DNA of 64,000 nucleotides, taken from contig JALNYN010000003.1 of assembly GCA_023229825.1 (NCBI GenBank), forward strand, positions 16,528 to 80,527, given 5' to 3'. The notes below the pieces were generated by a model. It had not been told where the DNA came from, searched no databases, and was given only the letters and a program-made list of their open reading frames with translations. Origin of the DNA: Minisyncoccota bacterium (GTDB lineage: Bacteria > Patescibacteriota > Minisyncoccia > Phycocordibacterales > CAIJYI01). This document shows, one piece after another, positions 1-12,126 of the stretch (position 1 is its first letter; each line of letters starts with the position of its first letter). The position numbers and the translations under genes were made by a program.

Positions 1-23
1 TCGAGAAATACGGTTTCATTGGG

Positions 24-632
24 ATGTGTATTCAAATTAAGAATATATTTATTGATCTTATCAATACACATGAATACAACTCGTTCTTAAATGGATTTTT
101 TACTTCTATAGGAGCGTCCTTCGCTTTTCTTCTTTTGATATATATTTTTTATCTGATGGAAAAATCGTTAATAGAAATTCACATAAAATTAGTACCCGAT
201 ATGATAAAGGATTGCGATAATTCTATTGAAAAAGTAAAAGATCTAACGAAGGATATTGAAGATTCTAAAGCTATTATTGATCAGATGAAGTTACAAAGCA
301 CAAATGAGGAATTGCAGACGCAGTGTTCATTAATAGCGGAATATATAGAAAAAATCAATAAAGCCAAAGGAGAAGCAGCCGATGCCTTTCTTGAGGAAAA
401 AAAATCTCTGGAAAAAGATCTCCGTGACTATAAAACAACATCATTTGTTTTTACTATCTATGAATTTTTCGGAAAAAAACATTTCGGAGGCACTGAATAT
501 AATAAATTTCACGATAACTTGGCATTTCATCTTGAAAAAAGCGAGAAAGCTGTTCAAGAAATGGAAAAAATGGTGCGTGCCGTTGGTTCAATTATAAAAA
601 TAATTAGGTCTTCCGCCGGACGGGGTTTGTAA
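24..632 (+). CDS. hypothetical protein with N-terminal TM helix and coiled-coil-rich C-terminus; reading frame is open to the window edge (possibly 5'-partial); AT-rich relative to neighbours
   Basis: ORF track 202 aa; hydrophobic segment 'FFTSIGASFAFLLLIYIFYL'; no in-frame stop between pos 3 and 24. Confidence 0.35.
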   Translation: MCIQIKNIFIDLINTHEYNSFLNGFFTSIGASFAFLLLIYIFYLMEKSLIEIHIKLVPDMIKDCDNSIEKVKDLTKDIEDSKAIIDQMKLQSTNEELQTQCSLIAEYIEKINKAKGEAADAFLEEKKSLEKDLRDYKTTSFVFTIYEFFGKKHFGGTEYNKFHDNLAFHLEKSEKAVQEMEKMVRAVGSIIKIIRSSAGRGL

Positions 633-880
633 CCCTTACAGGGTCAGTCCACTCATTGGATATTTTGTTCGTACCTCACAAAATCCCTCAATGAGTCTTG
701 CGGAATGGGTCCCTTCCCATTCCTCACCCGTCCATGACATTTGTATAAAATCACTGACGACGAATAGTTTGCAAAATTCGAAAATCGTAACATAAGTGGT
801 TAATCCAAACGTTCCGAACGCGGGTGCAACCCACGTCCGACGACGGCATCACCTTCATCAATGTTCGACCTTAACAGTGA

Positions 881-1381
881 TTATTTATTGAGTAAATCAG
901 AATATGAACCGGCGATGGCGGGATAGTTTTTGAGTAGAAGTCTGTTTTTCACTTCTTCGTGTTCCTTCTCGTAACTTTCTTTTGTGTCGCCTAAAACGAC
1001 TGTTTCCAATTCAATAAATTCTCCGAGATCGTCGACGGTATCCAGATGGATCCTTGTATTTTTATAGAGGTATAGATCTCTTTTTTTTACAACGCTAACT
1101 TTTGTTCCAAAAATATAGCCAAAAATAATTTTCGAGAATTTCACGCTGTTTTGAGGAATGGAAACGCGGTGATATAGAGATTCGCGAGTTCCTCTTTTTA
1201 TTTTTCTCACGTAATAGATAATCTCATTTCTGGTTTTTTCTTCGCGAATTTTCAATCTTTTTTCACCAAGTAAAAAATAAGTGTCTGTTTGTTCAAGTTT
1301 CGATGTATGAGCGGCAAAGTCGAGATGATTCTTTAGGTCATCAAGATTTTCTACCTTCACTTTTATTTCCAGATTTCTCAT
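881..1381 (-). CDS. CYTH-like (triphosphate tunnel metalloenzyme / class IV adenylyl cyclase-like) domain protein
   Basis: N-terminal 'NLEIKVKV' resembles the CYTH 'EIExKF' start and C-terminal 'EFIELETVV' resembles the CYTH 'EIExE' motif; size 166 aa is typical. Confidence 0.35.
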   Translation of the reverse strand: MRNLEIKVKVENLDDLKNHLDFAAHTSKLEQTDTYFLLGEKRLKIREEKTRNEIIYYVRKIKRGTRESLYHRVSIPQNSVKFSKIIFGYIFGTKVSVVKKRDLYLYKNTRIHLDTVDDLGEFIELETVVLGDTKESYEKEHEEVKNRLLLKNYPAIAGSYSDLLNK

Positions 1382-1563
1382 TTCAACGATTGTTGACTTT
1401 TTTCTTTTAGTTATGTGTTGTTAACAATTATCAGTCAAATAGATAACGTGGATTCCGGATCGCGGTCCGGAATGACAGTGAGAATTTATTCTTTATGCGT
1501 CGAAAATTTTTCGCAGAACCGGTCCGCCCATCTGACAAATATGCCCCCGGCCGGCGATAGACT

Positions 1564-2118
1564 TTATTGCATTTGGTAAAGGTATAATGTACGAGAAAGT
1601 GTTTCTTTTCCCACATCCAGATCTATTTTTTTTACGGGCATCCAATTTGGGATCTCAAAGTCACACGAAACAATTTTTGTTTTTGGCTGGCACTCGCGGA
1701 GAAATTTTGGTCCGAGTTGGGTCATGAGTTTTGGTGAAAGATAGCAGTAGATATGTGTTGCTGAAGAAATATCAGTCCTCGATATTTCCTCATATCTTAT
1801 TTTTACAGGGTAATTCCGTGAGAGAAACGATGCGACAAAAAAAGGAATAATTCCTTTTTCCATTCCGATCCCGCGAACTTTTGACACAGTTTTAACCGCA
1901 TCAATAAGTATTCTTCCGTCACCGCAACCCATGTCAACAAGAACATCGCCGCTTCTCATATCCAGTAATTCTATAATTTTTGCCACAGCATATCTGCGGA
2001 CCGGGACAAATGGTACGTCCGCAAAAATAGAATCCCGTAATATTAAAAGGAGAATGATACCGACAAGCACAAGAATAAGGGAAATGCTGGCGGTTGTTAA
2101 TATTACAAAAATATTCAT
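1564..2118 (-). CDS. class I SAM-dependent methyltransferase, N-terminal membrane anchor
   Basis: Motif I 'VLVDMGCGDGRILIDA'; ATG at 2118 chosen over the TTG-initiated longer track ORF (1564..2175). Confidence 0.55.
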   Translation of the reverse strand: MNIFVILTTASISLILVLVGIILLLILRDSIFADVPFVPVRRYAVAKIIELLDMRSGDVLVDMGCGDGRILIDAVKTVSKVRGIGMEKGIIPFFVASFLSRNYPVKIRYEEISRTDISSATHIYCYLSPKLMTQLGPKFLRECQPKTKIVSCDFEIPNWMPVKKIDLDVGKETLSRTLYLYQMQ

Positions 2119-2258
2119 AGGGAGTATTTTAATACTATCAAGCAAAAAGAAAATATACAACGTAAGCTGACCCAATCACCCCGAACGCAAGTGCTCCCTC
2201 ATCTGACTGTCGCATTCGGCGATGCGAACTTGAATTATTTACTATTTCATGTTATATT

Positions 2259-2468
2259 TTGATTATGAATGATCCGATAATTCAAAACGAGGTCGCGCTT
2301 AATTATTTGAATACGCTTTTTGGCAAGGCGATTTTTTTTAAGGATTTGGAGAAGGTACATCAACTGAATGTTTTAAGACACACTGTTTATTACGAAAAAG
2401 ACTTTGATTATGAAGCTGTATTAAAAATACTCGGAGAGATAGAGGAAAAATTAAAACGATATGAATAA
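2259..2468 (+). CDS. small protein (69 aa) overlapping the start of the zeta-toxin gene; putative cognate antitoxin (epsilon-like position)
   Basis: Stop overlaps the ATG of the downstream gene (ATGAATAA); location only, no recognisable motif. Confidence 0.35.
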   Translation: MIMNDPIIQNEVALNYLNTLFGKAIFFKDLEKVHQLNVLRHTVYYEKDFDYEAVLKILGEIEEKLKRYE

Positions 2469-3192
2469 TTTTGATATACAAAAAGAGGAGGTGGAGAGAA
2501 TTTTCAGAGAGATGATCGTTCCTCAAACTATTGGCGATTGCGCTCCGCAAGAAATAAAGCGGGCGTATATTTTAGGAGGTCAACCGGGAAGCGGTAAAAG
2601 CGCTTTTGCAAGAGAAATATTAAAAACAAACAACAATATCGTTTTTATAAATGGTGATGATTTACGAGCCTATCATCCCGGATATTATTTTTATTTAAAA
2701 GAAAACGATATCGAAGCTGCTGATAGGACGCAAGCCGTATGTAATTTCTGGATCGAGTCTCTTTTGCGGGAATGTATAAAACAAGGATTGGATTTGATCA
2801 TTGAGGGAACCATGCGAAAAAAAGAAGTCCCCATGAAAACGGCAAAAATGCTGGACGATGCGGGATATGAAACAAATCTTGTAGTTATTTCAACACCATA
2901 TGAATTGTCTCTTCGCAGTTTGGAATATCGATACAATGAACTCAGGAGACTTGGACAACCGGCAAGATTTACAAAAAAAGAAAGTCATGATGAAGCATAC
3001 GAGAATATAGAAGGAACTTTATCGGATTTGGTCGCTACCGAGTTATTCAAAAGGTTTTTTATTTACAAAAGATATGATGGCGGATTTGAAGAAAATATAT
3101 TTGAAACAGAGCAAAAAGAAAATGTTTTGCCGATCTTCAGAGAAGGTAGACTGCGGACGCTGGAACACAACGAAAAAGATCGACGACGATAA
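2461..3192 (+). CDS. zeta-toxin family P-loop kinase (UDP-GlcNAc kinase-type toxin)
   Basis: Walker A 'GGQPGSGKS' near the N-terminus, size about 240 aa, small upstream overlapping ORF; followed by a rho-independent terminator at 3234-3267. Confidence 0.6.
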   Translation: MNNFDIQKEEVERIFREMIVPQTIGDCAPQEIKRAYILGGQPGSGKSAFAREILKTNNNIVFINGDDLRAYHPGYYFYLKENDIEAADRTQAVCNFWIESLLRECIKQGLDLIIEGTMRKKEVPMKTAKMLDDAGYETNLVVISTPYELSLRSLEYRYNELRRLGQPARFTKKESHDEAYENIEGTLSDLVATELFKRFFIYKRYDGGFEENIFETEQKENVLPIFREGRLRTLEHNEKDRRR

Positions 3193-3233
3193 AAGGTTCG
3201 ACATTGACAGTGAAATTCGATAAATAATAAAAT

Positions 3234-3267
3234 ACACGGCGTCGAGAGTGACGCCGTGTTTTTTTTG
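3234..3267. terminator. bidirectional rho-independent terminator
   Basis: hairpin 'acacggcgtcgagagtgacgccgtgt' followed by an 8-T run; an A-run precedes it on the other strand. Confidence 0.7.
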
Positions 3268-3297
3268 AAGCGGGGTTTTTAAATCCCTCACTCCTAA

Positions 3298-3804
3298 TTA
3301 TCTTTCTCCAAGTCCGTAACCGCCGCTTCGATATACCGTGTTGGGGCGAGAAATCGCTTCTTTTGCCACATCAGCTAAATAAATTCTATCCCGTACAAAC
3401 TCATTATAAAGTACGGTAAGCTGGCGCGTTCTTTCTTCGCCTGACATATCGCAGCAAGCGCGCAATACTATTTCCGCAGAACCTTCGCCTCCGCAAGAGG
3501 TTGAATTCCAATGCAGAATTTGTTTCGCCCTCAAATATTCGACGATCTCGACGAGTTTTTCCGTTTTGCCCGGCTCTTGCATCATTCCTGCATAGTAGAC
3601 GGCGTTATGATCATGATCATGAGTACGCCAAATGTCTGAAATAGTACCCCATGCTACGCTTCTCAATGGTTCTTGAAGCTTGGTGGCATAGCGTTGGCCT
3701 GCGTCATAATCAGGATAAGGAAATCCGTTATTTACTATGCGAGCGACGGTTTCTCTTACCGCTCTTTCTTCATTGCTTTCTTGCCTTTCTGTTAATTTTT
3801 TCAC
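3298..3804 (-). CDS. hypothetical protein (168 aa)
   Basis: ORF track; coding-like composition; no family recognised. Confidence 0.4.
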   Translation of the reverse strand: MKKLTERQESNEERAVRETVARIVNNGFPYPDYDAGQRYATKLQEPLRSVAWGTISDIWRTHDHDHNAVYYAGMMQEPGKTEKLVEIVEYLRAKQILHWNSTSCGGEGSAEIVLRACCDMSGEERTRQLTVLYNEFVRDRIYLADVAKEAISRPNTVYRSGGYGLGER

Positions 3805-3964
3805 TTCATCTCCTCCTAAAGAAAATCAATGGACTTTTTTTAAAGGTCCGGTTTGATATTACTGTACGTCATAGGGTATTATTTGTCAAACATTCATAAT
3901 TGACGCATCGACCGGTCTAGAGTAATATTTACCTCGGATCGTGACGCGCTGAAGGAGAAAAACA

Positions 3965-4168
3965 ATGAGATACGGTTTGAAATTCGACAAAATTCATTTT
4001 ATTGAAGGATCGCAAAGAAATTATTTTGCGCCGCAATACGATGTACTTAAAAAGGGCGATCCTATTGAATGGCTCAGATGCATTATTTTTGTTCCGACCT
4101 TTGGTTTGATCTGGTATCCGCTCATAGCATTATTGTCTCTACGGATAGTTATAGTTGGAAAAAAATAG
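3965..4168 (+). CDS. small hypothetical membrane protein (67 aa)
   Basis: RBS 'gaaggagaaaaacaATG'; hydrophobic C-terminal half. Confidence 0.35.
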   Translation: MRYGLKFDKIHFIEGSQRNYFAPQYDVLKKGDPIEWLRCIIFVPTFGLIWYPLIALLSLRIVIVGKK

Positions 4169-4181
4169 GAGGAACCTATGG

Positions 4182-4204
4182 AAACGCCTACGGGCGTTTT
4201 TTCT
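4182..4204 (+). terminator. rho-independent terminator
   Basis: 'acgcctacgggcgt' hairpin plus T-run. Confidence 0.55.
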
Positions 4205-4661
4205 TTGTGCTTCAAATAACCATGAACGAGAAGTCTCCGAACGTTTCGGACAGGGTACATCCGGCAATAAAATTTTGCCCCCTCAGATAACTGAGGGGGC
4301 GTAAAACAGAATGATCACGCGGCTTTAAACCATTGCATGACGGGCCGTTTTGTTTTTGGATCTATGATCCATTTTATAATCACTTTTTCTTTCATGACAC
4401 TCTCCTACTTGTGTATATAAATTCAAGTGTTTTAATTGTACCATATTTTAGTATATACGTCAAGTAGCGGGGAGTGACGACAACGGGACGTGGATTCCGG
4501 CTCGCGGTCCGGAATGACAGCGGGGTTTTCATCATTGGTTCCGGCTCGCGCATTGCTATGCCGTAGCTTTAAGCGAGGACACAGTTTAAGTTGCGCTTGA
4601 CATATTTACATATGTATTATACTATTGCACCAGCACTACACAACTGAATGGAGGTTGTACT

Positions 4662-4925
4662 ATGACATTAATGTCTAAAGAAAAGCGTTTTGAAATGGCG
4701 CGACAAAATCCTATGCGGATGCATTGGAGAAGGATGGATACGAGATACCAAGTGGATCTTCTCAGAGTTCACTTTGAACACCGAAATCTTACCGTATGCG
4801 AGGCATCGCGCTACTTTGATCCGGGAGAAGGATCTTCAGAAGCATTTATTGAAAAGATGCGAAGGATCTTTGATGCGATCATTCCGCATTCACGCTTGGC
4901 GATAGAAAGCGGAAGGGAATTATGA
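4662..4925 (+). CDS. hypothetical protein (87 aa)
   Basis: Promoter-like TTGACA..TATACT at about 4598-4625 and RBS 'aatggaggttgtactATG'; its stop overlaps the start of the next gene. Confidence 0.4.
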   Translation: MTLMSKEKRFEMARQNPMRMHWRRMDTRYQVDLLRVHFEHRNLTVCEASRYFDPGEGSSEAFIEKMRRIFDAIIPHSRLAIESGREL

Positions 4926-5122
4926 AAATATTTAAAAGCAGATTATGGGCTTGGTGGGAACTTGGGCTCGTTAAATGGTCATCATTCTTGTGCGGCATTT
5001 TTGCCGGAGCGTATTGGTCGGAAATATTCGCGCCTCATGCATTCGCTATCCTCGCAGCAGGGCTTATACTTGGCGCTATCGGGGCCATCCTTTGGATCAA
5101 AAAAATGCGTAATATTACATAA
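4922..5122 (+). CDS. small membrane protein (66 aa)
   Basis: Two predicted TM helices; terminator immediately downstream. Confidence 0.4.
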   Translation: MKIFKSRLWAWWELGLVKWSSFLCGIFAGAYWSEIFAPHAFAILAAGLILGAIGAILWIKKMRNIT

Positions 5123-5124
5123 AT

Positions 5125-5152
5125 ATGCCCCGCCAAAAGCGGGGCATTTTTT
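5125..5152. terminator. bidirectional rho-independent terminator
   Basis: 'atgccccgccaaaagcggggcat' hairpin plus T6. Confidence 0.7.
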
Positions 5153-5582
5153 AAATCATCATTGCATTGATCTCTTCGACGGAAAGAACATTTTTTGCCA
5201 TGAGCACTGCGGCAATTTTGTATATTAGCGCGACGTTCAAAGGATTATTTAATATATCCTGAACTGTTTTTGCTGCAAAAAGGAAATATTGACATTGTAT
5301 GTTTCTGTCGCGAGAAAGCAGTAAAAGAACTTCTTGAGCCTGTGCGCGATCCGCCGTAGAATGGTGTTCCGAATATCCATTGGAAAATAGATTTTCGGAA
5401 ATATTTCCCGCGATAAAAAAACATAATTTTTCGAAATTGTCGCGGCCCGCCAGCCAGCTTACGCCGGTGAATCCTCCGTTTTCATTTATCGTAACCCCCA
5501 GCAGCTTTAATTTTCTCATGGCAAGGGCGACAATGGCATGTCCAGCCTCATGAAAAGCCAAAGCTTCTCTTATCATAATCAT
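5151..5582 (-). CDS. minimal FtsH-like (peptidase M41-type) metallopeptidase-domain protein, paralog 2
   Basis: 'AFHEAGHAIVA' HEAGH zinc motif at the N-terminus and a downstream 'STADRAQAQEV' segment resembling the FtsH third zinc ligand region; no AAA domain. Confidence 0.5.
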   Translation of the reverse strand: MIMIREALAFHEAGHAIVALAMRKLKLLGVTINENGGFTGVSWLAGRDNFEKLCFFIAGNISENLFSNGYSEHHSTADRAQAQEVLLLLSRDRNIQCQYFLFAAKTVQDILNNPLNVALIYKIAAVLMAKNVLSVEEINAMMI

Positions 5583-6034
5583 ACCTCCACCTCGCCATCA
5601 TTAACCATGGCATTGATCTCATCTTCAGTAAGAACATCTTTTACCATAAGAACCGCAGCGATTTTATTTAACAAGATAACATTCTTCGGATCCTCGAATA
5701 TTTCTCGAACTTTTTTTATCGCCAAGATCCAGAATTTATACTGTTCGTTCCGGTCATGAGAAATGAGAAAAAGAACCGTTTGGGTATAAACACGGTCTGA
5801 CCAGCAATGCTGTTCCGAATAATATTTTTCGGAATACAAACACTCCGTCATTTCTCCGGCGATATAAAAACATAATTTTTCAAAATTCATACCTTCTGAC
5901 CACTTAACATTAGTGGTTCCGCCGGTACCATCAAGAAGTATATCAAGAACTTTTATCTTGTTCATGGCGATCGCGACGACCGCATGGCCCGCTTCGTGGA
6001 AAGCGTGGGCTGATCTTTCTCCGACATCTGTCAT
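5579..6034 (-). CDS. minimal FtsH-like (peptidase M41-type) metallopeptidase-domain protein, paralog 1
   Basis: 'AFHEAGHAVVAIAM'; overlapping stop/start (ATGA) with the downstream paralog; no AAA domain. Confidence 0.5.
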   Translation of the reverse strand: MTDVGERSAHAFHEAGHAVVAIAMNKIKVLDILLDGTGGTTNVKWSEGMNFEKLCFYIAGEMTECLYSEKYYSEQHCWSDRVYTQTVLFLISHDRNEQYKFWILAIKKVREIFEDPKNVILLNKIAAVLMVKDVLTEDEINAMVNDGEVEV

Positions 6035-6150
6035 AACTTCCTCCTAAAGAAAATCTATATCCAGTACATCATGACCGTCACCTAAATGCAATAGCAAAAA
6101 ACGCACGGAAGGTGCGCTTTTGCAGTTTCAGCCGATAAGTATATTGAGCC

Positions 6151-6567
6151 TCAATGTATCACTTCGTTGACTTTTTTATATGTGTCATTGGAAAGCGAAC
6201 CGTTCTTTAAAAGATGATCGGCAAGATCAAGCGCTTTTCCATCAAGCAGTAATTTGCGTATTATCCCAAGGGATTCTGCAATATTTTCCGAATCAACGGG
6301 ACTGCCGACGAAATCTCCAAAATCCAGTTTTGTTTTATTTTTTAACGATTGAGAAAGGATCGAAAGACAGATCGCCGTGCTTTTAACATCTACATTTTCG
6401 GAACTGCGCATTGAATTTGTGAGCGAGTCTATCTCGCTAATCGCATCCGTTTCAGGATTCTGTATTTTGTTTATGAGTTCATTTATAGCATTCAAATTAT
6501 CAGCTACGGCGTTCTGGTGAAGCATTTCCTGGAATACTGGCTTGTTTTCGTGTTCTTTATATGGCAT
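6151..6567 (-). CDS. hypothetical protein (138 aa)
   Basis: ORF track only. Confidence 0.35.
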   Translation of the reverse strand: MPYKEHENKPVFQEMLHQNAVADNLNAINELINKIQNPETDAISEIDSLTNSMRSSENVDVKSTAICLSILSQSLKNKTKLDFGDFVGSPVDSENIAESLGIIRKLLLDGKALDLADHLLKNGSLSNDTYKKVNEVIH

Positions 6568-6733
6568 ATAAGTATTTTTAATTTAAAATATGTAATAAGT
6601 ATATCATAAAGATAAAAACATCCAATCTTTACTGGTTTAATACAATGTTTATTAATTGTTGTCAATCTTGACTTTATATACCCTGATGGTAAAACAAGGT
6701 AGGGAAGCTTGAATACGTACCAATGGAGGTAAC

Positions 6734-7075
6734 GTGATGGAAAAATTGAAATATGTTTGGAAAGTACTGCTGGCTGTCTTTGGGTGGCTGGTGAAAGGGT
6801 GGAAATGGTTTGTGGCTCATGATACGCCTCTTACCTTTATATATGACGTGGCCGGCGGAATAGGTCTCGGCTGGCTGGTACATTTGGGTTTAACTCATTA
6901 TATCGGTCACGGATTAGAATTTTCAGCGGCTCATCCTGCAGCAGGAATTACCGTCGAAGCGGTCGCTCCTCTGGCGGCATTTGCCTGGCCTCTTGCCATC
7001 CTCTTCGGGGGCGGATTAGCCGTTTTCTTAATATATTTGGATGTTAAGAACATACAAAAATACGGCGAACTCTGA
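6734..7075 (+). CDS. hypothetical membrane protein (113 aa)
   Basis: RBS 'ggaggtaacgtgATG'; several TM helices; terminator at 7088-7116. Confidence 0.4.
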   Translation: MMEKLKYVWKVLLAVFGWLVKGWKWFVAHDTPLTFIYDVAGGIGLGWLVHLGLTHYIGHGLEFSAAHPAAGITVEAVAPLAAFAWPLAILFGGGLAVFLIYLDVKNIQKYGEL

Positions 7076-7087
7076 TAGAGTAAAACA

Positions 7088-7116
7088 GAACGCTCCGCTT
7101 CGGCGGAGTGTTTTTT
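7088..7116 (+). terminator. rho-independent terminator
   Basis: 'acgctccgcttcggcggagtgt' plus T6. Confidence 0.7.
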
Positions 7117-7240
7117 AATACTGAGGGAAATGATATAAAAGGGTCGCTGTAAAAACGTGGATTCCGGATCCAGTCCGGAATGACGAAAGAGGGGATAGTT
7201 TTTTGATTCCGCGATATTTTTTGATATACTATATAGCACT

Positions 7241-7855
7241 ATGCAAACCAGTTTATTTGATTTCGGAACGCCTCCGCAAAAAGATTCGTATCTGTTCTTC
7301 GATACGGAGACCACCGGACTGCCGCGCAACTGGAATGCGAGAGCGGAGGATGTCGACAACTGGCCGCGGCTCGTTCAGCTCGCATGGATACAGTACGATG
7401 AGAATGGCAATGTGATCGCGTCAGAGAACAAGATCGTACGGCCGGACGGCTATACGATACCGGCGGATTCATCTCGTATCCACGGCATCACGACCGAACG
7501 AGCACTGGCGGAGGGGATTCCCGTGAGGCAAGTCCTTGAAACATTCTGCGACAAAATAGGGAAGTCAACGCACATCGTGGCGCACAATATCGACTTCGAT
7601 GAAAAGATCATCGGCGCGGAATTTATCCGTGCGGAAATGAATCACGACTTTCAAAAGAAAAAGAAGATCTGCACCATGAAAAGCACGGTGGACTTTTGCG
7701 CTATCCCCAGCCCTCGCGGATACAAATGGCCGCAGCTTTCCGAGCTTCACACCAAACTTTTCGGCGAACCTTTCAAGGACGCACACGACGCATCCGTAGA
7801 TATCGCCGCCACTGCAAAATGTTTTTGGGAACTGAAAAAACGAGGGGTATTATAA
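7241..7855 (+). CDS. DEDDh 3'-5' exonuclease (DnaQ-like) domain protein
   Basis: Exo I motif 'FFDTETTGL', 'HNIDFD', C-terminal 'HDASVD'; promoter-like TTGATT-16-TATACT only about 10 nt upstream of the ATG (possibly leaderless). Confidence 0.7.
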   Translation: MQTSLFDFGTPPQKDSYLFFDTETTGLPRNWNARAEDVDNWPRLVQLAWIQYDENGNVIASENKIVRPDGYTIPADSSRIHGITTERALAEGIPVRQVLETFCDKIGKSTHIVAHNIDFDEKIIGAEFIRAEMNHDFQKKKKICTMKSTVDFCAIPSPRGYKWPQLSELHTKLFGEPFKDAHDASVDIAATAKCFWELKKRGVL

Positions 7856-7895
7856 AGAAAGAGGCAGCAAAAACGCTGTCTCTTTTTTGTGTTGC

Positions 7896-8096
7896 CTATT
7901 TTTCTTTTTTAAATAATGCGATCACGTCGCCGCCGTAAGCGATCCTAAAATCGCGCTTTACTTTTTTCCCGTTGATCTTTATCAAGGAATAATCGCTGTA
8001 CGATGCGTTAAAGCCGTTCAATATCGAGGAAATCGTTTCCGGTTCACGAATTTTTCCGACCGTGATGATCGAGGTTGGCACTTTCAAATTTTGCAC
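7896..8096 (-). CDS. small protein (66 aa), possibly S4-like RNA-binding or ThiS/MoaD-like beta-grasp fold
   Basis: 'IKINGKKVKRDFRIAYGGDVIALF' pattern; weak. Confidence 0.3.
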   Translation of the reverse strand: MQNLKVPTSIITVGKIREPETISSILNGFNASYSDYSLIKINGKKVKRDFRIAYGGDVIALFKKEK

Positions 8097-8183
8097 CTTC
8101 TTTTTGTGAACAAATCTGCGTATATTATGAACATATTTTATTATATTGTCAACATAACGTTCTTGTGTTAATGTAAAACGATA

Positions 8184-9182
8184 ATGGAGTTTTCAAAGAT
8201 AACAGAACTATTGGCGGGGGAACCGAAATACCGTTTGACGCAGGTCAATCAGGCGGTTTTTTCTGATCTGGCGGAAAACTGGGACGATGTTACCGCGCTT
8301 CCAAAAATACTTCGCGAACGATTGAAAAAAGAATGCCCGATGGAGATCCCCGCGGAAATTTCCGTGTCCGCGGGGGAAGATACGGTAAAGGCGCTCCTTA
8401 AACTCTCTGACGGGAAATTTATCGAAACCGTGCTTATGCGCCATGAGGACGGGAGAAATACCGTGTGCGTGTCATCCATGGTCGGGTGTCCGATGAAATG
8501 CGCGTTCTGTGCGACGGGAGAAATGGGGCTTATGCGAAAATTGACCGCCGATGAGATCATTACGCAGGTTTTGTTTTTTGCTCGACTTTTGAAAAAAGAA
8601 AACGAGCGCGTCGGAAGCGTCGTTTTTATGGGAATGGGGGAACCGTTTTTGAATTACGATAATGTGATGAACGCCGTTCGAACCATGAACAGTCCGGAAG
8701 GATTCGGCATCGGCGCGCGCCATATTTCCATTTCAACCTGCGGAATTTTCGACGGAATAAAAAAACTCGCCAAAGAAGATCTCGCGCTGAATCTCGCCAT
8801 ATCGCTCCACTCATCAGATGACGAGGTCCGCCGACAGCTAATGCCCGTCGCGCACGGATATGAGATAACCGAACTGCTCGCGGTCATCGACGAATACATC
8901 GCCGCAACAAACCGAAAAGTGATGTTTGAATATCTTCTGATCAGCGGCGTGAACGATACCGACGAAATGGCGCTTGAGCTGGCGAAACTTTTAAAAAATA
9001 AATTGTGCGTGGTTAATCTCATTCAATACAACGATACCGGCGCTTTCATCGCTTCATCGCATAACCGAATGAATCGTTTTAAAGAAATTCTCGAGGTCAA
9101 CGGAATTCAGACCACGATGCGCTATCGTTTCGGGCGAGATATAAAGGGCGCCTGCGGTCAGCTCGCGACAGGCAGAAATTAA
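8184..9182 (+). CDS. rlmN: 23S rRNA (adenine2503-C2)-methyltransferase RlmN (radical SAM)
   Basis: 'GCPMKCAFCATG' CxxxCxxC radical-SAM motif; N-terminal and overall layout typical of RlmN/Cfr. Confidence 0.85.
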   Translation: MEFSKITELLAGEPKYRLTQVNQAVFSDLAENWDDVTALPKILRERLKKECPMEIPAEISVSAGEDTVKALLKLSDGKFIETVLMRHEDGRNTVCVSSMVGCPMKCAFCATGEMGLMRKLTADEIITQVLFFARLLKKENERVGSVVFMGMGEPFLNYDNVMNAVRTMNSPEGFGIGARHISISTCGIFDGIKKLAKEDLALNLAISLHSSDDEVRRQLMPVAHGYEITELLAVIDEYIAATNRKVMFEYLLISGVNDTDEMALELAKLLKNKLCVVNLIQYNDTGAFIASSHNRMNRFKEILEVNGIQTTMRYRFGRDIKGACGQLATGRN

Positions 9183-9194
9183 TAGACCTCCGTC

Positions 9195-9340
9195 GTCATC
9201 CCGGGCAGCGATCCCCGTGGATTCCGGATCCCTCCTTCGCCAAGGCTACGGAGGGCAAGCAAGTCCGGAATGACGAAATGGAAGAAAAAAATCATTCACC
9301 GTCATCCCGGGCAACGACCCGGGATCCACGTAATTAACGT
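9195..9340. repeat. cluster of family-B palindromic repeats (consensus ACGTGGATTCCGGA..TCCGGAATGACG / CGTCATCCCGGGCAACGACCCGGGATCCACG)
   Basis: Related copies at about 1444-1480, 4488-4522, 7155-7188, 12178-12212, 13745-13975, 14462-14548, 25968-26008, 26795-26935, 48064-48140, 55003-55033, 59948-59985. Confidence 0.8.
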
Positions 9341-9378
9341 TTTAATGAAATTTTTATTTTTCATGATATAATTCCTTT

Positions 9379-9825
9379 ATGAAAGAACAAACACATAAAT
9401 TCATGGAGGAATTCAAGGCCTTCGCCATGCGCGGTAATGTCGTCGACATGGCCGTAGGTATCATCATTGGAGGTGCGTTCGGAAAGATCGTGTCTTCGGT
9501 TGTCAGCGATATCATTATGCCCCCGATCGGCGTGCTGGTGGGCGGGGTCAAATTTACCGATCTCAAGCTCACCTTGAAAGGCGCGTCCACTGATCCCGTC
9601 ACGGGTAAGGTCTTGGAAGCGGTATATTTGAATTATGGACAATTTCTGCAGACGACCTTTGATTTTCTCATTATCGCGTTCTCCGTTTTTCTTATGGTGA
9701 AAACCATGCGAAAAATGCAGCAAAAAGAAGAAGTGAAACAAGAAGCTGCCGCACCCGCACCGCAGCCGACAAAGGAAGAACAATTACTAACCGAAATTCG
9801 CGATCTGCTGAAAGAAAGGAAATAG
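9379..9825 (+). CDS. mscL: large-conductance mechanosensitive channel MscL
   Basis: '[27 protein letters not shown]' signature; 148 aa. Confidence 0.9.
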
Positions 9826-10155
9826 GGGATTGATCTGATGAACAAAAACGTTTCTTAATGCCGGACGGGGTCTCTGACCCCGTCCGATGTGTTTTTTTGT
9901 TATCGCCGGACTGGGGTTGCACCCCTGTCCGTCGTTTGTATGAAAAAAATATGCGCAGTAAAACTATGACATTCGAAAATGACATCATAAGTGATTTCAT
10001 CCAAACGTTTCGAACTGGGGTGCAACCCCAGTCCGGCTATAGAATGTTACGGACACCCGGTCCGGCGAAAGAATACCTTGCGGAGGTTTTATACATCAAT
10101 TTTCTAACGGGGTCAACATTTCGCTCGCCGTCATTTTCCTTTATACTTACATACT

Positions 10156-12126
10156 ATGAAAACTACAAAAAACTGGGGGTTTGACGTACGCGATCTTGAC
10201 ACGAATGTTCGTCCGACCGACGACTTTTTCCATTACTCGAGCGGCGGGTGGATAAAAAGAAATCCGATTCCCGCCACCGAGGCGATGTGGGGAAGTTTCA
10301 GCGTCCTTCGGCAGGATAATCGCAAAAAACTGAAAATAATCGTTGAGGAAGTTTCAAGAGATAAAAATGCCAAAGCGGGAAGCGAAGAACAGATGGTCCG
10401 GGATATCTATGCTACCGGAATGGATACCTCTAAACGCGACCGAGACGGAGCCGACCCGATCATGCCGATCCTTGAAAAGATCAGAACCATTAAAAAAACG
10501 GGAGATATTATTCCTCTTATGGCGTATCTTCACAAACTTGGATTCGGCGGACTATTCGGTTTTATGATCGACCAAGATGAACGACACAACGAAAAAAATA
10601 TTATATATCTGGGACAAAGCGGACTCTCGCTTCCGGATCGCGATTATTACCTGAAAGACGATGAGGATTCAAAACGCGTGCGCGTCGAATATCGAACACA
10701 TGTTATCGCCATGTTTAAGCTGTTAGGAAAAACACCGAAAGAATGTGCGATCTTACTCGAAGCTATTATGCGCATTGAGACCGAGCTCGCAAAAGCTTCG
10801 ATGACGCGGGTGGAACTTCGCGACATCGAAAAACAATACAACAGACGAACTCTCGCCAAACTCGCAAAAGAGGCGCCCGGCATTGATTGGCAAAAATATT
10901 TTCGGCTCGTCGGCATTTCCAACACAGGAGAACTTATCGTCAACCAGCCGATGTTCATGAAAAGGGCCGGCGAATTGATCACTGAGGTCTCACTCGATGA
11001 ATGGAAAGCGTATTTCACCTGGCATGTGGTCAGCGGAAGCGCCAATTTTCTCGGAAAACTTTTTGTAAACGAGCATTTCAAATTTTACAGTACTGTGCTT
11101 TCAGGAGTAAAAAAACAGCGCCCCGAATGGGAAAAAACGGTCGCCTTTATCGACGGAACGGTAGGAGAAGCGCTCGGAAAATTGTACGTAAAAAAACATT
11201 TCGATCACGAATCAAAGAAGAAGATCAATGAGCTGGTGGACAATCTCTTTGCCGCATATCGCGAACATATCGAAGCGGTCGACTGGATGAGTCCGCGCAC
11301 GAAAAAATTGGCGCTCAAAAAACTCGCCGCTTTCAAACGAAAACTCGGCTACCCCGATAAATGGAAAGGATACAAAGGACTCACCGTGAGGCCGGATTCC
11401 TATATCGAAAATTATTGGCGCGTGCATGAATTCGAATGGAAAAGGGAACTGCGCAAACTGAAAAAGAAACCCGATCTTATGGAATGGCACATGACGCCGC
11501 CGACCGTAAACGCCTATTTTAATCCGGTCATGAATGAGATCGTTTTTCCCGCCGGAGTGATGCAGCCGCCGTTTTTTGATGCGGAGGCGGATGATGCGGT
11601 AAACTATGGCGCCATCGGATCTGTGATCGGGCATGAGATCACGCACGGTTTCGACGATCAAGGCCGGCAGTTTGACGGCACGGGGAATTTCAAAAATTGG
11701 TGGACCGACGAAGACAAAAAGAAATTCGAAGAGAAAGCGAAAGTGATCGAAGAACAATTTAACGGCTACACGGCGATCGATAATATGAAGGTCAACGGCG
11801 CACTCACACTTGGGGAAAATATCGCCGACTTGGGCGGGCTCACGATCGCTTTTACCGCATTTAAAAAATCGCAAGAAGGGAAGGATCGGAAAATCCTGGA
11901 CGGCTTTACTCCGGAACAAAGATTTTTCTTGGGCTATGCGATGACCGAACGCGAACAGATACGCCCCGAACTGTTGAAAAAAATAATCGTTACCGACCCT
12001 CATTCACCCAGCATTTTCCGCGTCAACGGCCCGCTTTCCAATATGCCGGAATTTATTGAGGCGTGGGGTGTGAAAAAGGGAGATAAACTGTATCGCAAGC
12101 CGGAAGACAGAGCGAAGATATGGTAA
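10156..12126 (+). CDS. pepO: M13 family zinc endopeptidase (PepO/neprilysin-like)
   Basis: 'HEITHGFDDQG' HExxH motif, 'GENIADLGG', 'NAYF' motifs; 656 aa. Confidence 0.85.
   Translation: MKTTKNWGFDVRDLDTNVRPTDDFFHYSSGGWIKRNPIPATEAMWGSFSVLRQDNRKKLKIIVEEVSRDKNAKAGSEEQMVRDIYATGMDTSKRDRDGADPIMPILEKIRTIKKTGDIIPLMAYLHKLGFGGLFGFMIDQDERHNEKNIIYLGQSGLSLPDRDYYLKDDEDSKRVRVEYRTHVIAMFKLLGKTPKECAILLEAIMRIETELAKASMTRVELRDIEKQYNRRTLAKLAKEAPGIDWQKYFRLVGISNTGELIVNQPMFMKRAGELITEVSLDEWKAYFTWHVVSGSANFLGKLFVNEHFKFYSTVLSGVKKQRPEWEKTVAFIDGTVGEALGKLYVKKHFDHESKKKINELVDNLFAAYREHIEAVDWMSPRTKKLALKKLAAFKRKLGYPDKWKGYKGLTVRPDSYIENYWRVHEFEWKRELRKLKKKPDLMEWHMTPPTVNAYFNPVMNEIVFPAGVMQPPFFDAEADDAVNYGAIGSVIGHEITHGFDDQGRQFDGTGNFKNWWTDEDKKKFEEKAKVIEEQFNGYTAIDNMKVNGALTLGENIADLGGLTIAFTAFKKSQEGKDRKILDGFTPEQRFFLGYAMTEREQIRPELLKKIIVTDPHSPSIFRVNGPLSNMPEFIEAWGVKKGDKLYRKPEDRAKIW

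Follow-up and report, generated by a model that had tools for sequence, protein, structure and literature searches.

Tandem FtsH-like M41 peptidase domains without an AAA module in a Minisyncoccota genome

FtsH is a textbook protease whose active sites need an AAA+ motor to feed them and a ring to hide them. Its protease domain forms hexamers in isolation and dictates the choice of partner in Yta10/Yta12, heterocomplexes of FtsH have a 1:1 composition, and the FtsHi pseudo-proteases have lost the zinc site (PMC9020784). Here we analyse a stretch of 64,000 nucleotides (nt) from a Minisyncoccota bacterium (assembly GCA_023229825.1, contig JALNYN010000003.1, positions 16,528 to 80,527), referred to below as the window, which carries two adjacent genes for FtsH-like M41 peptidase domains that stand alone. 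An earlier interpretation made from the letters only (the sequence-only reading) had located both open reading frames (ORFs), recognised them as paralogs with HEAGHA-containing N-termini and taken them for minimal FtsH-like domains. The two ORFs are indeed where it had placed them, on the minus strand, and the paralogy and the N-termini are as it had read them: close to its N-terminus the product of the upstream gene, A, reads HAFHEAGHAVVAIAM and that of the downstream gene, B, LAFHEAGHAIVALAM. We refer to A, B and their relatives as mini-M41 proteins.

Kinship of A and B with the FtsH protease domain

The kinship with FtsH became decisive only after an exhaustive search with HMMER and with a profile of 25 sequences. 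A single-sequence, word-indexed search with B returned nothing beyond B itself, neither phmmer of A nor a two-sequence profile gave a significant match in the PDB, and a genome scan with a four-sequence alignment led to 17 loci of which 15 were genuine ftsH genes and one alone (L006) was informative. In the exhaustive search, a profile of A and B was run with HMMER against 1.84 billion representative proteins and retrieved only 24 of them, all 139-273 amino acids (aa) long and matched from end to end, and none a full-length FtsH. The family hidden Markov model (HMM) matches A and B with E of about 1e-30 each. Compared with structures in the PDB, the 25-member profile (identity about 20-50%) matches FtsH at E = 5.5e-19 and 72 bits (2DHR; 4EIW and 7VHP also at about 6e-19), as well as 2DI4, YME1 (6AZ0) and AFG3L2 (6NYY). 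The FtsH match consists of two collinear segments that together span about 90% of the protein: profile positions 8-100, with the HEAGH helix, a beta-hairpin, the 'LGGRAAEE' helix and a helix carrying '...ND...', and positions 106-156, with the C-terminal helices and the end '...LLERETLTAEEF'. The similarity is therefore not confined to the HExxH pentapeptide but, in the Pfam and structural-profile check, extends far past it. At the level of Pfam, PF01434 is matched by all 25 members of the same alignment at E<=0.01 (best E = 2.5e-16); B on its own reaches 25.3 bits (E = 1.6e-5, residues 5-66) and A 20.7 bits (E = 4e-4, residues 5-28 only). Weak secondary matches to PF13398 (Peptidase_M50B-like) occur on the HExxH helix region in 10 of the 25 (best E = 3.3e-7), and no match to PF06114 (Peptidase_M78) is found in A, in B or among the 25 (E<=0.01-1).

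The catalytic residues expected of an M41 peptidase are retained throughout. Six positions are invariant in the 25-sequence alignment (H11, E12, H15, G59, D78 and L127 in B numbering), and the two histidines, the glutamate and the aspartate stay invariant in alignments of 74 and 81 sequences as well, at a mean identity of about 20%. Both the hmmsearch alignment to 7VHP and a MAFFT alignment with nine FtsH domains place D78 of B and D80 of A opposite the aspartate of the FtsH '...SND...' motif, and counting along the E. coli FtsH alignment (7VHP) the invariant aspartate faces residue 492. This residue, D492 by UniProt numbering and D495 in earlier publications, is the third zinc ligand of FtsH. 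The pattern S(T/W)(A/S)D, by which the sequence-only reading had marked this region, needs correction in its first residue: B reads STAD and the aspartate is real and invariant, but A reads CWSD.

The predicted structures agree with the profile. AlphaFold2 models of A and B, built on the 74- and 81-sequence alignments, have a predicted local distance difference test (pLDDT) score of 95.1 for A and 95.3 for B and a predicted template modelling (pTM) score of 0.90 for each, and both show a long HExxH helix, a beta-hairpin and then five helices. In Foldseek comparisons with the PDB the best 37 matches of A consist without exception of FtsH-family protease domains, at TMq 0.63-0.83, and the best 30 of B are all FtsH, YME1, AFG3L2 or FtsHi protease domains (TMq 0.66-0.83), the FtsHi chains 8XKU, 8XQW and 8XKS being among the good matches; against the isolated FtsH protease domain 2DI4 the values are TMq 0.77 and TMt 0.67. 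No ImmA/IrrE structure appears among the PDB sequence or fold matches of A and B. Profile, PF01434, fold and the alignment of the third-ligand aspartate thus bear out the assignment to a minimal FtsH-like M41 domain.

That the AAA module is missing, as had likewise been claimed, is confirmed by the ORF starts and the profile matches. A and B open 10-12 residues before HExxH, which leaves no room for an AAA+ module or an N-terminal anchor; the AAA families of Pfam have no match in either protein, and the match to the FtsH model TIGR01241 is confined to profile positions 416-493 of 598, with 14.6-20.6 bits against a cutoff of 600. The maximum Kyte-Doolittle hydropathy over 19 residues is 1.45 in A and 1.73 in B, at residues ~115-135, and this peak corresponds to a buried helix of the fold (pLDDT 98). 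Membrane localisation was considered and rejected, as this is the sole hydrophobic peak and there is no N-terminal extension. Elsewhere in the window the family HMM detects no further ORF of M41 or FtsH type.

A and B also differ from FtsH within the protease domain itself. In a MAFFT alignment of 19 mini-M41 proteins, in which every clade is represented, with the protease domains of nine FtsH proteins of various phyla, including that of a Saccharimonas from the candidate phyla radiation (CPR), a segment of ~37-41 residues ('YGMSdkLG...FLG...SE.TA..ID.E') is present in 9/9 FtsH domains and absent from 19/19 mini-M41 proteins. It falls between the aspartate helix and the C-terminal helices, and the C-terminal tail of FtsH is absent as well. 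Since this segment of ~40 residues is lacking, the pair represents a trimmed variant rather than the canonical M41 domain of ~190-200 residues. A bootstrapped neighbour-joining tree on the 152 shared columns separates FtsH from the mini-M41 proteins in 100 of 100 replicates; together with the common deletion, this split makes the mini-M41 proteins a distinct, long-separate family rather than recent truncations of host ftsH genes.

Gene organisation, duplication history and surroundings of the pair

A and B are about 53% identical over 139 aa (BLASTP E = 3e-51). The ATGA overlap between them that the sequence-only reading had reported is literally present in the DNA (ATG at 5582-5580, TGA at 5581-5579), but B probably begins later, at M3 (ATG 5576-5574), which gives a protein of 141 aa and is also the start annotated by NCBI. 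Judged from the DNA, this shorter product is the more likely one, because the GGAGG motif is spaced 7 nt from the ATG at 5576 and 1 nt from that at 5582; the junction would then read TGAttATG. By either reading of the junction the two genes are tightly translationally coupled. The DNA upstream of A (6035-6150) is intergenic and contains a weak hairpin (6094-6123; z = -1.7), which a consensus terminator scan did not report. With this hairpin on one side and the terminator at 5125-5147 on the other, the A-B pair is therefore a self-contained bicistron (Table 1).

Table 1. Features of the A-B locus (positions in the window)
Feature	Position	Strand	Basis
Gene A, 151-aa standalone mini-M41 zinc metallopeptidase, upstream in the bicistron	5579..6034	-	ORF; family HMM E = 2e-30; AlphaFold; Foldseek
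Gene B, 143-aa standalone mini-M41 zinc metallopeptidase, downstream; probable start 5576, giving 141 aa	5151..5582	-	ORF; PF01434; AlphaFold; Foldseek
HEAGH of A, zinc-binding and catalytic (H13 E14 H17)	5984..5998	-	CAC GAA GCG GGC CAT read in the DNA; invariant among 81 aligned sequences
HEAGH of B, zinc-binding and catalytic (H11 E12 H15)	5538..5552	-	Read in the DNA; invariant in the 25- and 74-sequence alignments
Asp80 of A, predicted third zinc ligand	5795..5797	-	Invariant column (81 sequences); opposite D of FtsH 'TGAsND'
Asp78 of B, predicted third zinc ligand	5349..5351	-	Invariant column (25 and 74 sequences); opposite E. coli FtsH residue 492
Strong Shine-Dalgarno AGGAGG, spaced 5 nt from the ATG of A	6040..6045	-	Sequence reading
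Shine-Dalgarno GGAGG within the 3' end of A	5584..5588	-	7 nt before the B ATG at 5576, 1 nt before the ATG at 5582
Bidirectional intrinsic-terminator hairpin at the end of both the A-B operon and the operon convergent with it (4662-5122)	5125..5147	both	Terminator scan
Hairpin and U-run after an upstream 138-aa ORF, probably insulating the A-B operon	6094..6123	-	RNA fold of 6085-6150 (-)

A profile of the sequences closest to A and B defines a tight subclade of 13 clusters at E <= 1e-39, the next match standing at 1e-12, and its named members are proteins from metagenome-assembled genomes of Candidatus Parcubacteria. Contexts on long contigs were retrieved for members of 5 of the 13 clusters; all five are single copies in the same slot, with the order folD, glutaredoxin (divergent), mini-M41, purN (convergent), divIC, lepA, murJ and secDF, and none of the five contexts holds mobile-element genes. 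Across these genomes LepA is 86-94% identical, as compared with 54-66% for the mini-M41 protein, and the ratio of nonsynonymous to synonymous substitution rates (dN/dS) between orthologs is 0.07 and 0.14 in the two least-saturated pairs; by these measures the gene is fast-evolving yet constrained. The divergent arrangement of the glutaredoxin and mini-M41 genes is kept in five genomes (L003, L047-L053), with a shared intergenic region of 127-182 nt.

A and B are sisters in the tree (54% identity, bootstrap 90/100) and jointly sister to this syntenic single-copy clade. The folD-grx-purN-lepA block is not in the window, and the pair therefore goes back to a tandem duplication, specific to its lineage, at another locus. 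Between A and B dN/dS is at most about 0.15, with dS saturated, and by this ratio both copies are under purifying selection.

Around the pair, from 2259 to 7100, the GC content shows a modest dip (40.6% vs 44%), and in 500-nt steps it runs at 0.30-0.44 over positions 1-7000 of the window as compared with 0.44-0.53 in the housekeeping region that follows. Many of the ORFs in this first stretch are small and restricted to the species, which, with its composition, gives it the look of a variable island, although neither an integrase nor a tRNA nor flanking repeats could be found there. Helix-turn-helix (HTH) families have no match in the eight ORFs flanking A and B, and PADLOC-DB v2 has none for A, B or their neighbours except a weak AbiTi match (E = 0.0085) to a 69-aa ORF at 2259-2468 (+). 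This ORF overlaps the 5' side of a PezT/zeta-toxin gene (2461-3192, plus strand; PF06414 E = 5e-37, NF041574 PezT E = 1.5e-34) and could encode an antitoxin of the epsilon/PezA type, the resulting type II toxin-antitoxin module (2259-3192) lying about 2 kb from A and B on the other strand. Convergent with the pair is an operon at 4662-5122 (+), which encodes an 87-aa protein and a 66-aa predicted membrane protein with an ATGA overlap at 4922-4925, both known only from this Paceibacterota species. Regulation of this operon by A and B, which the sequence-only reading had proposed to test, found no support: the operon converges on the pair, is separated from it by the bidirectional terminator and consists of ORFans of this genome. 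Nothing was found that ties A and B to this operon or to the zeta toxin. On the other side, the housekeeping region (7241-12126) contains a gene for a DnaQ/RNase T-like exonuclease (7241-7855) and, recognised by eye only, probable genes for an RlmN-like radical-SAM protein (8184-9182), an MscL-like protein (9379-9825) and an M13-type HExxH peptidase (10156-12126).

The mini-M41 family, its annotation and its genomic contexts

The sequence-only reading had called free-standing M41 domains unusual, which holds relative to textbook FtsH but not for metagenomes, where standalone M41 domains of 140-300 aa number thousands. A profile search of a collection of 5.8 billion proteins gave at least 5,620 matches among the 8,000 candidates scored, and the best 120 of them are all standalone proteins of 160-300 aa. 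Source databases label the relatives 'hypothetical protein'; the names 'cell division protease FtsH' and 'ATP-dependent Zn protease', which are also in use, are misleading, and no NCBIfam, PHROG or PADLOC model is dedicated to them. Among individual entries, the member from Geotalea uraniireducens Rf4 (WP_011937290.1) has the UniRef name 'Peptidase M41 domain-containing protein', and BFVD holds one example of 214 aa from Caudovirales. The family is unnamed and unstudied rather than rare, and its recognition fills an annotation gap affecting thousands of proteins. A phage paper that mentions a 'peptidase M41 domain' was set aside, as it concerns an AAA+ replication protein. In the PDB, the profile has a weak match (E = 0.33, profile positions 8-78) to 5IQJ, a 134-aa protein of Vibrio cholerae without an assigned function, whose chain A superimposes on the model of A with TM 0.52/0.59 and whose chain C does so marginally (TM 0.35-0.41); it may be a distant mini-zincin relative.

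Outside the subclade of A and B, mini-M41 genes often lie close to the integration machinery of mobile elements. A large serine recombinase gene directly adjoins them in four loci (L028, L032, L040 and L045), and a tyrosine integrase gene is found 0.4-2.2 kb away in three others (L023, L033 and L041); in L023 the order is tyrosine integrase, small excisionase-like ORF, mini-M41, an ORF of 390 aa and capsid genes. L004 is an island with serine recombinase, Fic and transposase genes, and L026, which carries a tape-measure gene, is a phage contig. In L006, L023 and L025 the mini-M41 gene is preceded by small ORFs of HTH or excisionase-like type, and in L006 the HTH-like ORF overlaps the first of two copies, with a PIN toxin pair downstream. 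In an all-against-all BLAST of the neighbours, recombinases are the sole recurrent family; the small upstream ORFs show no detectable homology to one another and gave only one weak match to HTH_17. The sample of loci is biased, as 10 were taken from a viral-contig collection; of the 8 loci obtained free of this bias, 4 look mobile-element-like. With one mainstream member as query, tblastn detected a single protein among the phages and plasmids of GenBank, encoded on a Rhizobium megaplasmid and called hypothetical by PGAP, and none in a phage record; the association with prophages therefore rests on metagenomic and IMG/VR contigs. One of the latter (L031) carries a mini-M41 gene (5833-6384, plus strand) about 750 nt from a gene (7128-8600, minus strand) whose product of 490 aa has collagen repeats and, at its C-terminus, a Zeta_toxin domain; this recalls the zeta toxin near A and B and could be coincidence.

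Other clades are chromosomal. In L055-L059 (253-6492) the mini-M41 gene belongs to an operon dxr-rseP(M50)-miniM41, whose genes run in one direction, the rseP product being a site-2 protease with PDZ domains. A canonical ftsH gene lies divergently upstream at about 4 kb, so that three zinc-protease genes share one neighbourhood. In another chromosomal clade it follows the genes for a cytochrome-like protein and a DUF7133 protein. The phage or defence association proposed in the sequence-only reading thus applies to other clades, which are integrase-proximal in prophage-like elements, but not to the pair's own subclade with its housekeeping slot, nor does PADLOC match the pair.

These contexts bear on the strongest alternative to the function proposed below, namely that A and B are site-specific regulatory proteases in the manner of ImmA/IrrE, directed at a repressor, an antitoxin or an island switch, possibly at the PezT-like module or the ORFans of the window. 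The position of other clades in the regulatory corner of integrated elements, beside recombinases and HTH or excisionase-like ORFs, is consistent with this. So is P0207, a protein of 246 aa (named 'excisionase family DNA binding protein' by JGI) in which an N-terminal mini-M41 domain is fused to a C-terminal HTH_17 domain (PF12728), an architecture that suggests a functional link of the protease to the DNA-binding switches of mobile elements. In addition, the pair lies in a lower-GC, ORFan-rich stretch with a zeta toxin, and the mini-M41 gene of L031 also has a zeta-toxin-domain gene nearby. What makes this explanation unlikely for A and B themselves is the subclade to which they belong, all five retrieved contexts of which are the housekeeping slot free of mobile-element genes. 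Moreover, the window offers neither an integrase, a tRNA or an adjacent HTH repressor nor a PADLOC match for A and B, the zeta-toxin gene, which has an upstream partner ORF of its own, occupies the opposite strand at a distance of 2 kb, and there is no sequence or fold likeness to the M78 peptidases ImmA/IrrE.

A scan of all fetched loci with the family HMM showed that tandem copies recur. Coupled pairs with a 4-nt overlap are found in L006 (Blastocatellia) and in L043/L044, the phage pair of L026/L027 has a gap of 124 nt, and in L040 two copies lie 1 kb apart. Every tandem partner keeps HExxH and the aspartate (one as HEAAH). The pairs of the window and of L026 are in-paralogs, whereas those of L006 and L043 are older (27-32% identity) and combine a canonical downstream copy with a divergent upstream copy; the pairing has therefore arisen more than once. 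The coupled pair of L043 (2659-14561) lies between a gene for a 1120-aa WD40-repeat protein and DUF499/DUF1156 genes, a defence-island-like setting.

Proposed function and comparison with known systems

Taken together, we consider A and B to be catalytically competent, soluble, ATP-independent zinc peptidases that each consist of a trimmed M41 domain, were duplicated in tandem and possibly act as a heteromer, a reading to which we assign a probability of about 0.72. The domain is made up of the HExxH helix, the beta-hairpin, the 'LAGxxAE' helix, the aspartate-bearing helix and three C-terminal helices. Zinc would be bound through two histidines and the aspartate in both proteins, with the glutamate of HExxH as the general base, and the edge strand of the hairpin would bind substrate in the manner of zincins. 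As they have no motor, A and B would be independent of ATP and restricted in their substrates, which would be peptides, chains in an unfolded state or particular proteins that expose a segment. The translational coupling of A and B lends indirect support to a joint assembly. The recurrence of coupled pairs, taken with the literature on FtsH oligomers, makes a two-subunit assembly a reasonable hypothesis, and by this analogy we suppose, speculatively and at somewhat less than even odds, that A and B form a mixed oligomer. As to physiological roles, we speculate that the mini-M41 protein of Parcubacteria may serve general turnover of peptides and proteins, and that those of mobile elements may act as an ImmA-like switch.

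Several observations weigh against this reading of the pair. The PF01434 scores of A and B as single sequences are below the gathering threshold of the family (29.9 bits). The glutamate of the FtsH 'AEE' helix is retained in the A/B subclade but is a glutamine in most of the wider family, so that details of the active site vary. The A-B pair has been found in one species-level genome only (a metagenome-assembled genome of Candidatus Paceibacterota, CPR/Patescibacteria), and a link to its neighbours therefore has no comparative support. A full-text literature search retrieved no description of, or experiment on, standalone M41 domains. Finally, since the ~40 residues and the AAA ring of FtsH help to form a sequestered chamber, an exposed M41 site may, by comparison with FtsH, need a partner or be poorly active.

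In a further explanation, A and B are non-catalytic mimics of FtsH that dock on the ring of the cell's FtsH or join it as a decoy or adaptor, comparable to FtsHi in FtsH12 complexes. Their fold is that of the FtsH protease domain, the module for oligomerisation and partner selection (PMC9020784), FtsHi is among the good structural matches, and in L055-L059 a mini-M41 gene lies in the vicinity of canonical ftsH. A pure mimic, though, has no need of a catalytic set, and yet the H-E-H-D residues are invariant in every alignment, while FtsHi has lost its zinc site (PMC9020784); the 100/100 split from FtsH and the missing ~40 residues also argue against precise mimicry of an FtsH interface, which makes this explanation quite improbable. 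That A and B are decaying ftsH fragments, pseudogene remnants or annotation artefacts, as the strong local FtsH likeness around HEAGHA and the name 'cell division protease FtsH' given to such short proteins in some databases might suggest, is rejected as hardly credible in view of the Shine-Dalgarno motif and start codon of each ORF, the lack of AAA-coding remnants upstream, the consistently short lengths (140-230 aa) of thousands of relatives, the deletion conserved in all clades, the purifying selection and the complete, confidently folded predicted domains.

Seen as soluble mini-M41 peptidases, A and B represent neither a new fold nor a new chemistry. What they bring up is the question of what an unguarded M41 site does and how it is kept safe, given that a widespread family keeps nothing but the catalytic core of 140 aa, with its set of residues intact and under purifying selection. 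They also raise the questions of whether such domains still form rings and whether FtsH was built by fusing a motor onto a free-standing peptidase; if the ~40-residue segment is an insertion specific to FtsH and not a deletion in the mini-M41 proteins, the latter would resemble the pre-fusion ancestor of FtsH. Prophages and integrative elements may, as the integrase-proximal clades indicate, possess proteolytic regulators of a new class, and the conserved Parcubacteria clade is a candidate core enzyme for organisms with very small proteomes. As A and B are small, soluble and confidently modelled, these ideas are directly testable. A more comprehensive picture, which we put forward as conjecture and regard as rather unlikely as a whole, is that of a long-independent and perhaps ancient lineage of FtsH modules that form ATP-independent rings, or hetero-rings where the genes are coupled pairs, and that serve as integrase-proximal switches in mobile elements and as core peptidases in some Parcubacteria.

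Among described systems, FtsH, YME1 and AFG3L2 (MEROPS M41, PF01434; 2DI4, 2CE7, 3KDS, 2DHR, 6AZ0 and 6NYY) are the closest, with the same fold across the whole of the mini-M41 protein (TMq 0.63-0.83). Common to both are HEAGH on the first helix, the 'LAG/LGGxxAE' helix, the aspartate as third ligand on the next helix and a C-terminal helical bundle that ends in the '...L.E.ETL...E' helix. In contrast to FtsH, the mini-M41 proteins are devoid of N-terminal transmembrane helices, of the AAA+ ATPase with its ATP-driven unfolding and translocation, and of a built-in sequestered chamber, and in the Parcubacteria subclade the FtsH motifs 'TGAsND' and 'PRG.ALG' are degenerate. The M50 proteins, to which the Peptidase_M50B-like family (PF13398) and the site-2 proteases belong, are polytopic membrane proteases and a poor match in fold (TMq 0.38 for SpoIVFB and 0.32 for S2P). 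ImmA/IrrE (PF06114, M78; COG2856) are likewise small, soluble, ATP-independent HExxH proteins, and their niche beside the integrase, excisionase and HTH genes of integrated elements is shared by the mainstream mini-M41 clades; they differ, however, in that no M78 sequence, profile or fold matches the mini-M41 proteins, whose third ligand and topology are those of M41, and in that the pair of the window has no adjacent XRE-type repressor or integrase. The tandem arrangement, lastly, recalls FtsHi and the heteromeric FtsH proteases (type A/B of chloroplasts and cyanobacteria, Yta10/Yta12, AFG3L2/SPG7), in which paralogous M41 domains co-assemble 1:1; those are full-length membrane AAA+ proteins, of which FtsHi has given up the zinc site, whereas A and B both keep the site and have no motor.

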